Of a DNA stretch of 64,000 bases, positions 47,260 to 62,943 are shown in pieces. The notes beneath the pieces were generated by a model. It searched no databases, was not told the DNA's origin, and saw only the letters and a list, made by a program, of their open reading frames with translations. The stretch's first letter is position 1; every line of letters starts with the position of its first letter. Origin of the DNA: a virus (taxonomy: Duplodnaviria > Caudoviricetes); the IMG/VR virus record IMGVR_UViG_3300011577_000001; one strand, written 5' to 3'. A program made the position numbers and the translations under genes.

Positions 47260-49278
47260 TTAGCGGTTCCAGGTCCCGGTGAAGGGAGAGCTGAACAGGC
47301 GCGAGCCTTGTTGCTGACCGCCACCGTAGTTGAAGAAGCCACCAACGTTGTTGGCAACCAGGTGGTTCAGGTCGTAGCCACCACGCTGAGTCAGGACGTT
47401 GTTATCGTCCAGGCCCTTGGCAGGACGCACGTTCAGACCGCAACGTACGATTGCTTCGGACAGCGCGTCCATGAAGGCGTTGTCGAACGACACGCGACGA
47501 GCGAAGCCCTTGACGTGGATTTCCGAGGCCAGGAGCTGGCGCAGGATTTCCTTGCGCTGAGCCAGGCGGATTTCCAGCGGGACCTGCACGTTGCGGTGGG
47601 TTTCTTCCCAGGCTTCGACCAGTTTCGGGTTGGTCTTGCCAGCCAGGTTGAGGATGGCCAGGTAGTCGATTTCACGCAGGTCACGACGATTGCCTTCGCG
47701 ATCGTAGTAGAAGCCCAGGTGGATGCGATCCTGATCGTCGTAGCAAACCGGCTTGGTCGCGTCGAACAGTTGCTGGAAGTGACCCATGGTCAGGTTGTTG
47801 GCCGCTTGCAGGATGGCCAGACGAGCGTTCTCGTCGCCGTTGGCGGCGGCGATGTAGGTCTGGTGAATCCAGGACAGCTCGCCAACCTCGGCGATGTCGA
47901 GGGTGAAGATCAGCTTCGGCGCGATCAGGGTGTTGATGAGCTGGCGCATTTCGTTGTCACCGAAGTCGGCGGAACGAGTCGGCAGTGCATCAGGCTTGGC
48001 GTTCGGGTCACCGGTCAGGTTGACTTCGTAGCCGACAGCACCCAGGTCTTTCAGATCGACGTCGGTAGCCTTGCCCTTGTTGGCGCGCCAGGTACCGGTG
48101 TACAGCGCGTTGCGGTTCAGACCGAAGGCGGTAGACAGGGTCAGCAGTTGCAGTTCCATGTTCACGGCGTCGGTCAGGGTGTCGACCGAGGTCATCACCA
48201 GACGCGGCTGGTACATCTGAGTCGCCATCATTTGCTGCTGGCCGAACATACCGAAGGCGTTCTGCTGCGGCTGGAAGCCCGCTTGTGCCGGTTGGTACAT
48301 CAGGTCAACGTACGCACCCACGCGGGTGAGCTGACGGGTTTGTTGCAGGCTGAACTGCGAGTCGGCTTGGGACTGCGCGGACATGGTGACGATGATGTCT
48401 TCACGTACCGGCATGCCAACCAGGTCTTCGCCGTGCTGACGAGTGAACTCGACACGCGCGCTCAGTTGGTCACCAGCGCCGACTTCGCCCAGGGTGAACG
48501 GCTCTTCGGTGCCGCCGAGCTGGTTGTCCATGATGGTGTAGCAGGCCTGGGTGCTGTTGTGCAGCAGGCGGTTGAAGCGGTTCTCGGTGCTGACTTCGGC
48601 TTCGGCCGGGATCACGATGCCACCGGCGTCGTGGACCTGAGCGTTCATGCCGTAGGTGTTGATGACGAACTGCTCCAGAACTTGCCAGTACGACTTGTTC
48701 AGGTAGATGTCACCCGGTACGATGTCGACTTCGACGGTGGTGCCGCCCAGGTTGACGCTGTTCGGGTCCAGCGGCGCACCGCTCGATTCGATCAGCATGC
48801 TGTAGACCGCGATGTGGTCTTGGCCCTGGAAGTTCTCGTGGTAGCAGACCAGGATGCTGGAGAAGGTCACCTTGGACTGGTTGTTGTCCAGTACCAGGAT
48901 GTTGAATTCCTTCTTCTGCTGTTCGGTCAGCACTTTGGCGGCGCGTTCTTTCAGACCGGTCTGGATGGTCTGCACGTCTTCGCCGGACATGTTACGAGGA
49001 ACCGGACGGCGGTGGTTGGCGTTGACGTCGAGGACCGAACGGCCACGGCTGCCGACGCGAGAGTTTTGCTGGTTCATCTGAGCACCTGCGTTGAAAGGTT
49101 GTTGCGGTTGAGCGTTACCGCCAGTCGGCTGTTGCTGACCACCGGCTGGTTGTTGTGCTTGCTGGGTCTGATCAGCACCCTGCGGATTGAGGCCTGCTTT
49201 CAGCATGGCTTCTGCCATTGCGCTGTTCGCAGGTTGGTTCGACTGGCTCTGGCCAGGTTGGTTACGTTTGACGGACAT
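47260..49278 (-). CDS. chmA: Chimallin (phage nuclear shell protein)
   Basis: About 672 aa directly upstream of the nvRNAP catalytic gene; Q-rich N-terminus, GMPVREDI, HLGFY...G..RDLREIDYLA; strongly biased codons; SD AAGGA. Confidence 0.88.
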   Translation of the reverse strand: MSVKRNQPGQSQSNQPANSAMAEAMLKAGLNPQGADQTQQAQQPAGGQQQPTGGNAQPQQPFNAGAQMNQQNSRVGSRGRSVLDVNANHRRPVPRNMSGEDVQTIQTGLKERAAKVLTEQQKKEFNILVLDNNQSKVTFSSILVCYHENFQGQDHIAVYSMLIESSGAPLDPNSVNLGGTTVEVDIVPGDIYLNKSYWQVLEQFVINTYGMNAQVHDAGGIVIPAEAEVSTENRFNRLLHNSTQACYTIMDNQLGGTEEPFTLGEVGAGDQLSARVEFTRQHGEDLVGMPVREDIIVTMSAQSQADSQFSLQQTRQLTRVGAYVDLMYQPAQAGFQPQQNAFGMFGQQQMMATQMYQPRLVMTSVDTLTDAVNMELQLLTLSTAFGLNRNALYTGTWRANKGKATDVDLKDLGAVGYEVNLTGDPNAKPDALPTRSADFGDNEMRQLINTLIAPKLIFTLDIAEVGELSWIHQTYIAAANGDENARLAILQAANNLTMGHFQQLFDATKPVCYDDQDRIHLGFYYDREGNRRDLREIDYLAILNLAGKTNPKLVEAWEETHRNVQVPLEIRLAQRKEILRQLLASEIHVKGFARRVSFDNAFMDALSEAIVRCGLNVRPAKGLDDNNVLTQRGGYDLNHLVANNVGGFFNYGGGQQQGSRLFSSPFTGTWNR

Positions 49279-49358
49279 CTCGTGTTCCTTTTCATTGGGG
49301 TTGAGCACTACGACACACCATTTGCCTATGCTCTATTTATTTACATTGGGCATGGTGT

Positions 49359-58276: not shown

Positions 58277-58376
58277 AGGGGTCCCCTGATGGATTCGAAC
58301 CACCGACCGTCGCATCCATTCTGTCCCAGGTTTGGACCAAGATGCACAACTCTAACCGACTGAGTTTAAGGAGACC
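58277..58376 (-). ncRNA. tRNA-like RNA with expanded anticodon arm
   Basis: 8-bp acceptor GGTCTCCT/AGGGGACC, D arm AACTC..GGTTA-GAGTT, T arm GGTGG-TTCGAAT-CCATC; 24-nt insert between TGCATC and GATGCG. Confidence 0.7.
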
Positions 58377-60010: not shown

Positions 60011-60646
60011 TTATTCAGAACGACGGTTGCGTTGGCCGTACTCGATGCGAAGAACCGCGAACAGCTCAACCGAATTCTCGGCAGCAGATGAACGCGTTGG
60101 CATGCAACCCCATTTCTGGGTGTCAACTTGGATGTTGACGTGTTGCTTACCGTTGAGGCGATCCGCAAAGGTCTTCAAGCGAGTCTCAGTACGGTGTCCC
60201 GGTACTTCGACGACGTTGCTCTTGACGACCAACCCATCAGCAGTCTCCAGGTGAACGACTTCCACCGAGAAGATAGCATCAGGACCCTCCAACACGGCGC
60301 CGGTTTCACCAGCCAACGTGAAGAGGTTTTGTTCAACGCCGTTCAAAGGAACGCGCACGTCAACCTTGGCAACGTAATCCTCAGCATCAAGGACTACCCA
60401 GTCGTCGGCAAGGATGTCGGACTGAGAAGCAACCCACGGGACAAAATCACCGTTGTGCGCTTTCAGACCCAGCCAAGGTCGCAGAGTCGGTGCAGGGTCC
60501 TTACGAACGTTGAGACCAACGGTGCGAGCACCCACGTCATAATGGCCAGAGCCAACCATGACGACCCACATGCCTTTACCGTTCCAGCCTTCGCGTGTGG
60601 CGCGAGAGCCATGCTTCAAAGCCGTAAGGGCTTGACCGAACTCCAT
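60011..60646 (-). CDS. tad2: Tad2/DUF2829 anti-defence sponge domain fused to a ~125-aa domain
   Basis: MEFGQALTALKHG.RATREGWNGKGMWV...PWVASQSDILADDW; SD CAGGAG before ATG 60646. Confidence 0.8.
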   Translation of the reverse strand: MEFGQALTALKHGSRATREGWNGKGMWVVMVGSGHYDVGARTVGLNVRKDPAPTLRPWLGLKAHNGDFVPWVASQSDILADDWVVLDAEDYVAKVDVRVPLNGVEQNLFTLAGETGAVLEGPDAIFSVEVVHLETADGLVVKSNVVEVPGHRTETRLKTFADRLNGKQHVNIQVDTQKWGCMPTRSSAAENSVELFAVLRIEYGQRNRRSE

Positions 60647-60667
60647 GTGAAGCTCCTGTTGTGAATG

Positions 60668-60753
60668 TGGCGGTGGGCGAAGGATTCGAACCTTCGGGGC
60701 CGCAACCCTCTCCCTTAGCAAGGGAGTGCGATAGACCGCTCTGCCAGCCCACC
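60668..60753 (-). tRNA. trnS: tRNA-Ser(GCU)
   Basis: CTCCC-TT-GCT-AA-GGGAG, variable arm, GCCA. Confidence 0.93.
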
Positions 60754-60776: not shown

Positions 60777-60853
60777 TGGCTGGGATAGTTGGGCTCGAAC
60801 CAACGACCTGGTGATTAACAGTCACCCGCTACTACCAACTGAGCTATATCCCA
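60777..60853 (-). tRNA. trnN: tRNA-Asn(GUU)
   Basis: GGTGA-CT-GTT-AA-TCACC; GCCA. Confidence 0.93.
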
Positions 60854-61356
60854 TTATAACGAATACCAAGAGCTACCCGACGAACCGTGTCTTTACCGAT
60901 TTCAAACTCCCGAGCAATTGCTCGATAGCTCATGGTACCGACCAGTTCAAGGATAGCCTTGACTGACTCTTCATCAAGCGCAGCATGTGGGCTGTCAAAC
61001 CCTTTCTTGCCTTCATACAAACCTAAGGCTTGCGCATGATCAATATTACCTTGATGCGTTACCCACTCCAAGTTATCCCACCGGTTATTTGTCTTATCCG
61101 TGTCCTTATGGTTCACGAAGGGAAGATTCAACGGGTTAGGGACAAAAGCCTTGGCCACTTGTACATGAGCCCTTAAACAGAACGACTTACCTTTCCTTCC
61201 TCCTATCTTGGAGGCGTGAGTAAGATAGCCATTATGGTTGGGCGTCAGTGCCAAATCTTGGAACGTGCGAATGCTAAACAGTGTCCCGAAATTGCCGATC
61301 ATGAAGAGATCAGGGTAGTCAGGACATTCCGTGAAGACTTCAAATTCATACGACAT
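60844..61356 (-). CDS. HNH homing endonuclease (I-HmuI-like, C-terminal HTH)
   Basis: HVQVAKAFVPN..FVNHKDTDKTNNRWDNLEWVT..N..HA; stop codon lies inside tRNA-Asn. Confidence 0.9.
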   Translation of the reverse strand: MSYEFEVFTECPDYPDLFMIGNFGTLFSIRTFQDLALTPNHNGYLTHASKIGGRKGKSFCLRAHVQVAKAFVPNPLNLPFVNHKDTDKTNNRWDNLEWVTHQGNIDHAQALGLYEGKKGFDSPHAALDEESVKAILELVGTMSYRAIAREFEIGKDTVRRVALGIRYNGI

Positions 61357-62261: not shown

Positions 62262-62348
62262 TGGTGGTCGAAGGATGGAATTGAACCTCTAGCACAAGGC
62301 GGCGCGTTTACAGCGCGCTGACAGTAGCCATCTGTCTCTACAACGACC
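62262..62348 (-). tRNA. trnY: Atypical tRNA-Tyr(GUA)
   Basis: GCGCG-CT-GTA-AA-CGCGC and ACCA end; irregular acceptor, D and T stems. Confidence 0.65.
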
Positions 62349-62499: not shown

Positions 62500-62633
62500 T
62501 GGCCCCGCTACGTGGACTCGAACCACGGACCTCCCGCTGGCACGCGCATTCAAACGTCATCACTGCCGGAAGGGCTGCTAGCGACGTAACCGCATGTCTA
62601 ACGAGTGCTCTAACCAACTGAGCTATAGCCGGG
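62500..62633 (-). ncRNA. tRNA body whose anticodon loop is replaced by a 63-nt structured extension
   Basis: TAGCTCAGTTGGTTAGAGCA D arm, AGGTC-CGTGG-TTCGAGT-CCACG T arm, GCCA end; insert between CTCGT and GCGGG. Confidence 0.8.
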
Positions 62634-62636
62634 ATG

Positions 62637-62871
62637 TGAGAGAAGGCCGCTACCCCGATCTACGGGCCGTGATACTCTCGGGGACTCAGGCGAAAGGGAA
62701 CCAAAAGCCTAAGAACTGCGGTATGCAAGCGCAGTCGTCTATTACCCCAGAGTCGGGTCGCAATATCATTCGATGGTGTGTGGGGTCCGTCAAGTCTCCA
62801 CGTTCCCTCTCGGTGGCGAAACCAAGAGCGTGCTGGAACTTACCATTCAAACAAATCACGTCATTCTCTCA
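62637..62871. ncRNA. 235-nt multibranch structured element at the head of the RNA island
   Basis: TGAGAGAA/TTCTCTCA closing stem; ACTCT.GGGG/CCCCAGAGT, ACTGCG/CGCAGT and GTTCC/GGAAC helices; strand ambiguous. Confidence 0.45.
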
Positions 62872-62914
62872 TGATATCATTGAGCTATGTATTTTTTTAC
62901 TGCATTTGTAGGGA

Positions 62915-62943
62915 CAAAAAAAAGAGGGCCCCGAAGAGCCCCG
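62915..62943 (-). terminator. Terminator after an early gene
   Basis: GGGCTC-TTCG-GGGCCC then TCT8 on the minus strand. Confidence 0.8.

Follow-up and report, generated by a model that had tools for sequence, protein, structure and literature searches.

In this work, we describe a tRNA-shaped RNA of a nucleus-forming phage, hereafter rod-tRNA, in which a long irregular hairpin, the rod, takes the place of the anticodon loop. The features of this RNA and of its homologues point to a conserved, tRNA-derived family of scaffold RNAs that does not decode and whose rod is probably a docking site for a protein, a reading to which we give a probability of about 0.6. The GAC remnant of the former anticodon loop (YNGACAU), together with the D arm, suggests descent from a Val(GAC)- or Asp-like tRNA. 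The folding energy of the element was no better than that of shuffles (z = 0.03) and is thus no evidence by itself; the argument against chance is built on the tRNA score and the covariation in 11 homologues.

The rod-tRNA gene and its tRNA island

The window, i.e. the whole stretch of 64,000 nucleotides that was analyzed, is part of a 240,392-bp IMG/VR virus record that is ~87% complete. The gene for chimallin, the nuclear-shell protein, at 47260-49308 of the window (minus strand) and the split multisubunit RNA polymerase subunits encoded in the record indicate a nucleus-forming, phiKZ-like jumbo phage, whose nearest cultured relatives are Burkholderia phage FLC9 and Xanthomonas phages RTH11, Xoo-sp14 and LucasX (~40% protein identity). 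Its tRNA island lies on the minus strand at 57.4-62.7 kb of the window, where ARAGORN finds 8 ordinary tRNAs, and the rod-tRNA gene forms the upstream end of this island (Table 1). Since the gene upstream ends in a hairpin that resembles an intrinsic terminator, rod-tRNA is the first tRNA-shaped unit of the tRNA-island transcript. The leader in between is GC-rich, with several hairpins and without a credible ORF, and its last ~40 nt before rod-tRNA are ~90% identical in a close relative (L003).

The Rfam tRNA model (RF00005) matched the element over 62503-62632 with 41.2 bits (E 2.7e-7; gathering score 29), all 71 model positions (1-71) being aligned and 63 nt standing where the model has the 7 positions of the loop, and the covariance model of the family (R1) gave 122.6 bits over 62500-62632. 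The acceptor stem, the D arm with G18G19, the variable loop and the T arm with GTTCRA are all present, as are U8 and A9 between acceptor stem and D arm and A26 after the latter, whereas a 7-nt loop with U33 and R37 is not. Nothing that gives the tRNA elbow and the acceptor/T minihelix their shape is missing from the element. The original prediction of an intact tRNA body with textbook D and T arms and a 63-nt rod is borne out by these matches, both arms being read on the minus strand of 62500-62632, and the helices that it named within the rod (CAUGCG/CGCGUG, ACGUCG/UGACGU and a GCC..GGC tip) are all found in the MFE fold.

Table 1. Coordinates of rod-tRNA, its parts and its upstream region in the window, and of oversized tRNA-like genes in cultured phages
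Feature	Record	Position	Strand	Basis or remark
Whole gene, tRNA-shaped RNA, 133 nt incl. encoded CCA	window	62500..62632	minus	Rfam tRNA and family model R1
Acceptor stem, 5' strand CCGGCUA	window	62626..62632	minus	pairs with 62504-62510, G3.G70 mismatch
D arm GCUC / AGUUGGUUA / GAGC, with G18 G19	window	62607..62623	minus	nearly invariant in 11 homologues
Anticodon stem, 5' strand CUCGU (nt 27-31)	window	62601..62605	minus	pairs with GCGGG 62533-62537
63-nt insert (rod) replacing the 7-nt anticodon loop	window	62538..62600	minus	Rfam alignment, fold, covariation
UAGACAU, remnant of positions 32-38 (A33 for U33)	window	62594..62600	minus	paired with 3' strand CGCGUGCCA
P1, 5' strand CAUGCG	window	62591..62596	minus	pairs with CGCGUG 62541-62546; family helix 4
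GUU and P2, 5' strand ACGUC	window	62583..62590	minus	GUU with AAU 62548-62550; P2 with GACGU 62554-62558
Internal loop, 5' side GCUA	window	62579..62582	minus	UA invariant in family (T53 A54)
P3 hairpin GC(A)GCC-CUUCC-GGC(A)GU	window	62562..62578	minus	terminal loop differs among homologues
Internal loop, 3' side GAU	window	62559..62561	minus	GA invariant in family (G72 A73)
3-nt bulge UUG (UUU in most homologues), adjoining the GUU/AAY helix	window	62551..62553	minus	fold, alignment
Variable loop AGGUC and T arm CGUGG-UUCGAGU-CCACG	window	62511..62532	minus	GGAGGUC, GUUCGA invariant in family
Acceptor 3' strand UAGCGGG, G73, encoded CCA	window	62500..62510	minus	CCA not kept in distant group
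Intrinsic-terminator-like hairpin and T8, end of upstream gene	window	62925..62942	minus	strong hairpin
Leader, ~290 nt, terminator to rod-tRNA	window	62634-62925	minus	
Oversized tRNA-like genes, Xanthomonas phage RTH11	OQ790161.1	75700-75998		unannotated
Oversized tRNA-like genes, Burkholderia phage FLC9	LC667451.1	128919-129202		unannotated
Oversized tRNA-like gene, Ralstonia phage RP12	AP017924.1	131865-131972		
Oversized tRNA-like gene, Xanthomonas phage LucasX	MW825358.1	137824-137946		

Other features of the island were also recorded, all on the minus strand. A degenerate tRNA-Tyr(GUA)-like sequence at 62266-62348, with the loop CUGUAAA, a long variable arm, a T arm and an ACCA end, was not called by ARAGORN and reached only 20 bits in Rfam, to tRNA-Sec; L003 has a regular tRNA-Tyr in its place. 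An HNH endonuclease gene at 60844-61356 (phrog_59, E 5e-38) recalls the segB homing endonuclease of the T4 tRNA cluster, and among the tRNAs at 60011-60721 a protein with a Tad2-like Thoeris anti-defence domain is encoded (PF11195, E 2.5e-23). Directly after tRNA-Ser(UGA), at 58277-58375, there is a second oversized tRNA-like gene, read by ARAGORN in intron mode as Thr(GGU) with a 17-nt insert, in which a 24-nt segment with its own GUCC/GGAC hairpin is flanked by GCAUC and GAUGC; the tRNA-Ala found at the same place in L003 is no homologue of this gene.

Homologues in related phages

Homologues were searched for through relatives of the flanking proteins and then with degenerate DNA patterns in viral and metagenome contigs. 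The same architecture was found in 11 sequences from 10 viral or metagenome contigs, the carriers being the phage of the window and some nine uncultured relatives of it. An element built in the same way is present in L003, whose neighbour proteins are 89% identical, and in each of the distant relatives L005 to L008, whose neighbour proteins are 45-46% identical; L014, L021, L024 and L034 were added by the degenerate patterns. The exact pattern joining the two junctions of the window element had no match in viral contigs, and it was the looser patterns that succeeded. The model R1, built on ten of the 11 sequences, scores the members at 117-133 bits against at most 69 bits for the ordinary tRNAs of the same loci, and detects one copy of rod-tRNA per genome. 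Its place in the island varies, as it comes first in the group of the window and after tRNA-Ser(UGA) in the distant group. A blastn search of the element against 50,697 cultured phage records returned short generic tRNA matches only, and the five nearest cultured phages (Burkholderia FLC9, Xanthomonas RTH11, Xoo-sp14 and LucasX, and Ralstonia RP12) are without the family, their best R1 score being 62.5 bits, and have oversized tRNA-like genes of other kinds. Besides, a locus search based on chimallin gave two close relatives only, and the closest contig stops short of its tRNA island.

Within the family, hardly any change is seen in the elbow nucleotides, in GGAGGUC or in the upper part of the anticodon stem, and variation is found in the acceptor stem, discriminator and 3' tail. 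The encoded CCA that had been noted in the window stands for the group formed by the window, L003, L014 and L024, but fails as a feature of the family, since GCA, GCU or GCC, with CAUU after it, takes its place in the other group. Odd mismatches are found in the acceptor stem (G3.G70, U4.C69, G1.A72) and, together with the unconserved CCA and discriminator, they weaken those roles that would depend on aminoacylation. In the distant group, rod-tRNA is followed by a conserved 3' trailer, CAUUAGAAGGUUCCUUAGGGAACAGAAG, which forms a small hairpin (L005 7945-7975, and the same place in L006 to L008); in L005, the next gene after the trailer encodes a staphylococcal-nuclease-like protein (PF00565, L005 8167-8649).

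Covariation and conserved features of the rod

The insert measures 56-63 nt in the family, and a continuous but irregular helix of about 25-28 bp has taken up the anticodon loop. In a model-guided alignment of the 11 sequences, which are partly related, 95.1% of the cells are standard pairs, compared with 76% in shuffles and 38-46% when the partners are slid by 1-3 columns, and changes on both sides were counted in 25 of the 36 pairs. RNAalifold, applied to an independent MAFFT alignment, gave compensatory changes in 23 of 36. Both partners have changed in all five pairs of P2, in 4/5 pairs of the P3 tip hairpin and in 6/7 pairs of the acceptor stem, covariation is seen in 4/5 pairs of the T stem, and the U28.G42 wobble of the anticodon stem is kept in ten of the 11 members. 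As judged from this pattern of substitutions, the rod is under structural selection.

Outwards from the anticodon stem, the rod is made up of a helix that swallows the former positions 32-38, the GUU/AAY helix by the bulge, P2, a 4x3 internal loop and the terminal hairpin. Three of its features are conserved: (i) the GUU/AAY helix, with a U-rich bulge of 3 nt next to it on the 3' strand, (ii) the 5-bp helix P2, and (iii) the 4x3 loop, 5' NNUA / 3' GAN, of which UA and GA are invariant (alignments A4 and A5). The free terminal loop of P3, by comparison, reads CUUCC, GCU, UAAC, CUCC, UUAG, UUCG or UU among the homologues. In its size and UA/GA core, the 4x3 loop may resemble S-turn or loop-E modules; a k-turn reading of this loop does not fit.

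Decoding, splicing and processing

Removal of the insert at 37/38 in the window leaves UAGACA+A, with A rather than U at position 33, just as the original prediction had stated. Across the family, positions 32-38 are base-paired with the 3' strand of the insert, and they read UAGACAU (window, L014), CUGACAU (L003), CGGACAC (L034), CGGGCAU (L005), CGGGCCU (L007), CUAAUCC (L008), UUAAUCC (L021) and CCAACCU (L006, L024). We enumerated all single-segment removals that leave seven nucleotides between the stem strands, with Y32-U33-NNN-R37 as the target. No such excision exists in 8/11 members, the window among them; in the other three, L003 would yield GAC, and L008 and L021 would yield GAA, AAA or AAU. 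The orthologues do not have the same anticodon, and ARAGORN in intron mode proposed six for the homologues (ACC, GAC, GAA, AGA, CGA and UUA). Its call in the window, a tRNA-Gly(ACC) with an intron of 58, can only be drawn if the stem is taken as 4 bp with an A.A mismatch and nucleotide 26 is left out; it does not recur in L003 and was rejected as an artefact. The burial of positions 32-38, the failure of excision in 8/11 members and the differing anticodons in the remaining three make a conserved, intron-bearing decoding tRNA unlikely. The earlier view of a tRNA scaffold with a structured stem that is unlikely to decode is strengthened by this outcome and by the compensatory changes in the family.

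The main rival of this scaffold reading is a Val-GAC-like tRNA gene with a small protein-spliced intron, of a kind undescribed in bacteria or phages, in which the rod would be the recognition element for an endonuclease and a ligase, and splicing would restore decoding. Since the anticodon is paired with the intron in precursors of truly intron-bearing tRNAs as well, splicing is compatible with a rod shape as such. Pairing of this kind is usual in pre-tRNAs (see the review PMC4090602), GAC recurs in the window, L014, L003 and L034, and inserts in the tRNAs of huge phages have been reported as introns (bioRxiv 10.1101/356790, PMC13037316). The string CUGACAU of L003, with U33 and A37, looks canonical and also speaks for this rival; the element of L003 may once have decoded, or may still decode to a residual degree once it has been processed in some way. 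Furthermore, the rod of the window group is weakest, with a mismatch and a bulge, exactly at the old anticodon, and this spot could be a processing site.

Several observations stand against an intron. First, the canonical loop cannot be obtained by a single excision in most members, and the three others disagree on the anticodon. In addition, the helix of L005 and L007 is unbroken from the anticodon stem onward, without bulges to mark splice sites, and no bulge-helix-bulge of the 3-4-3 type occurs in the folds, which led us to reject an intron of this class. The phage record (~87% complete) has no match to RtcB, Rnl2 or a CCA-adding enzyme, nor to the splicing endonuclease (PF01974), though the control genomes were detected; Rnl1 likewise had no match, but its control was silent everywhere, which makes this absence uninformative. 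These enzymes could be encoded in the missing part of the phage genome or in the host. A group I intron, already judged too large for the insert in the original prediction, is discarded as well, because 56-63 nt compare with a core of about 200 nt or more and no Rfam intron matched at E ≤ 10. Finally, the selection on the UA/GA loop and the U bulge exceeds that on the usual discarded intron. Taken together, we consider the intron rival unlikely.

A different proposal is that the element only punctuates the transcript: the tRNA shape would recruit RNase P or RNase Z, and the duplex RNase III, to cleave the tRNA-island transcript, and the RNA itself would have no task once cut. Its position at the head of a 5-kb tRNA island, behind a leader of ~290 nt, would suit such a task, and RNase III sites in phages look like a ~25-bp duplex interrupted by internal loops. 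But any ordinary tRNA would do for this purpose, and the invariant UA/GA loop, the U bulge and the single copy at differing places of the island argue for a specific role, and we therefore hold the punctuation proposal to be distinctly improbable.

Comparison with known RNA classes

A cmscan search of 651 nt with all 4227 Rfam families (E ≤ 10) lists only tRNA and chance-level matches, and no YrlA, Y RNA, tmRNA, group I intron or self-cleaving ribozyme. This bears on a further alternative, for which the original prediction gave the analogy: the element would be an RNA of the Y-RNA/YrlA type, with a tRNA-like module and a stem that docks the host Ro60/Rsr in the surveillance or repair of RNA. 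Mimicry of tRNA is a property of YrlA RNAs, which are found in 22 phages (PMC4201824), and both kinds of RNA join a tRNA-like module to a stem that binds, or in rod-tRNA would bind, a protein. Their topology is nevertheless reversed, as YrlA ends in the Ro-binding stem and rod-tRNA in the acceptor stem. The Rsr-binding motif of YrlA, GNCGAAN0-1G (PMC4201824), or its alternative GGUCCGA, is absent from the rod in the family alignment. Moreover, neither Ro60/TROVE (PF05731) nor RtcB was found in the 240-kb record, ~87% complete, whereas YrlA genes sit within 4 kb of Ro60. Membership in the YrlA/Ro60 system is accordingly very improbable. That the element is a decaying tRNA pseudogene, or a tRNA with a selfish hairpin insertion, and has no function is strongly disfavoured: A33, the acceptor-stem mismatches and the unremarkable folding energy would be in its favour, but the element is kept where flanking proteins are only 45-46% identical, with compensatory changes in every helix and invariant elbow nucleotides.

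Likeness to tmRNA lies in the tRNA-like top half and in a long helix that leaves in the place of the anticodon arm. A tmRNA, however, has roughly 360 nt against the 133 nt and full D arm of rod-tRNA, ARAGORN found no tmRNA in the window, position 3:70 is G.G and not G3:U70, and the rod is a simple helix with no reading frame or pseudoknots. Other candidates were rejected too. A box C/D reading, which calls for a conserved C box RUGAUGA and a D box CUGA forming a k-turn, relied on GUGAUGA, present in the window only (GUGAGAA in L003, GUGAAG or GCGAGG in the others), and SNORD104, with its cut-off at 40 bits, scored no more than 13. GUGAUGA...GAA and UGACA, when read as a k-turn, hammerhead or hairpin ribozyme, failed too, as the strings are unconserved and the required helices missing. 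The guide role that had been suggested for the stem found no footing either, since the single-stranded tip varies freely among the homologues, and complementarity of the insert to the rest of the phage genome was not above chance, with none longer than 11 nt.

Among phage RNAs, RNAC and RNAD of T4 (species 1 and 2) are stable RNAs of unknown role encoded in the phage tRNA cluster (PMC3014915, PMC9697503), and share with rod-tRNA this origin as small RNAs inside such a cluster. The fold of T4 rnaC has a T-arm-like hairpin, CCGGG-UUCGAAU-CCCGG, and a closing stem next to long hairpins; the Rfam tRNA model does not recognise it, its best match being tRNA-Sec with 17.5 bits. Neither rnaC nor rnaD matches R1 or shows homology, and they differ from rod-tRNA, which keeps the full cloverleaf body including the D arm.

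Another likeness is offered by Lak megaphages and other huge or jumbo phages, whose tRNAs have been described with 'enigmatic' introns (bioRxiv 10.1101/356790, PMC13037316). These tRNAs, too, are oversized; their inserts are conserved and lie in the anticodon region, and no splicing route is known for them. As far as their description allows comparison, the inserts were called introns by tRNAscan in eukaryote mode, with assigned anticodons and some with a nested tRNA, whereas in the rod family the homologues, when compared, have no conserved anticodon that an excision could restore. The rod family of chimallin-encoding phages is a new instance of anticodon-less RNAs of tRNA shape, with unusually clear covariation. 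We found no paper on the rod family, nor one showing that such inserts abolish decoding.

Proposed mechanism and significance

On the scaffold reading, rod-tRNA would be transcribed as the first unit of the tRNA island and, because its top half is that of a normal tRNA, it would be released by host RNase P and 3' trimming enzymes, to accumulate as a stable L-shaped RNA barred from the decoding site. The working surface would be the rod, above all its UA/GA loop and U bulge, most likely for docking a protein, and the tRNA half would provide folding, processing, stability and access to tRNA-handling factors. Both maturation by host tRNA enzymes and protein binding appear plausible. Our most specific guess, at lower odds, is an uncleavable decoy or adaptor for a tRNA-binding factor, e.g. 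a host anticodon nuclease; aimed at host nucleases that attack tRNAs, a decoy would have the appeal that its former anticodon is hidden within a duplex. The wider idea that nucleus-forming jumbo phages use the tRNA shape as a carrier, with rod-tRNA as a ribonucleoprotein module whose tRNA half enters the machinery that handles or attacks tRNAs and whose double-stranded rod binds or blocks a protein, for instance as an uncleavable decoy for a host anticodon nuclease or some other defence directed at tRNAs, is tentative, and we take it as possible but doubtful.

The usual explanations for tRNA genes in phages are codon supply and escape from defences that cut tRNAs. An RNA that is conserved among phages and retains the whole tRNA body, yet has given up decoding, would point to another, third use of this fold. 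Such an RNA would also be the counterpart in nature of the engineered tRNA scaffolds for RNA expression in bacteria: in the design of Ponchon and Dardel, a cargo RNA reportedly replaces the anticodon loop and the tRNA body drives processing and stability. That scaffold is a laboratory design, whereas rod-tRNA has the same layout as a natural and evolutionarily conserved RNA. In addition, oversized 'tRNAs with introns' are routinely reported in huge phages and left unexplained, and the homologue comparison suggests that at least some of them are not interrupted tRNAs. With ~130 nt, a structure supported by covariation and a candidate binding surface, rod-tRNA would be a practical entry to its partner protein.

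Other oversized tRNA-like genes

Oversized tRNA-like genes of 108-150 nt, with other inserts, are also found in cultured nucleus-forming phages (Table 1). One of the RTH11 inserts contains a T-arm-like and then a D-arm-like hairpin, and looks like a permuted tRNA nested in a tRNA. Another type of insert, of ~80 nt and with CCAAAGGG, begins right after nucleotide 31 of the tRNA body in L012 (857-997, minus strand) and L032 (11007-11143, minus strand). In L012, AGACAA stands between the insert and the 3' stem strand; compared with the rod family, this type of insert is on the opposite side of the loop remnant. Finally, the marine metagenome contigs L023, L028, L029, L030 and L035 carry tRNA-Ile(UAU)-like genes with an insert of ~55 nt, whose removal at 37/38 would give the canonical loop CUUAUAA; unlike the rod family, these look like true intron candidates.
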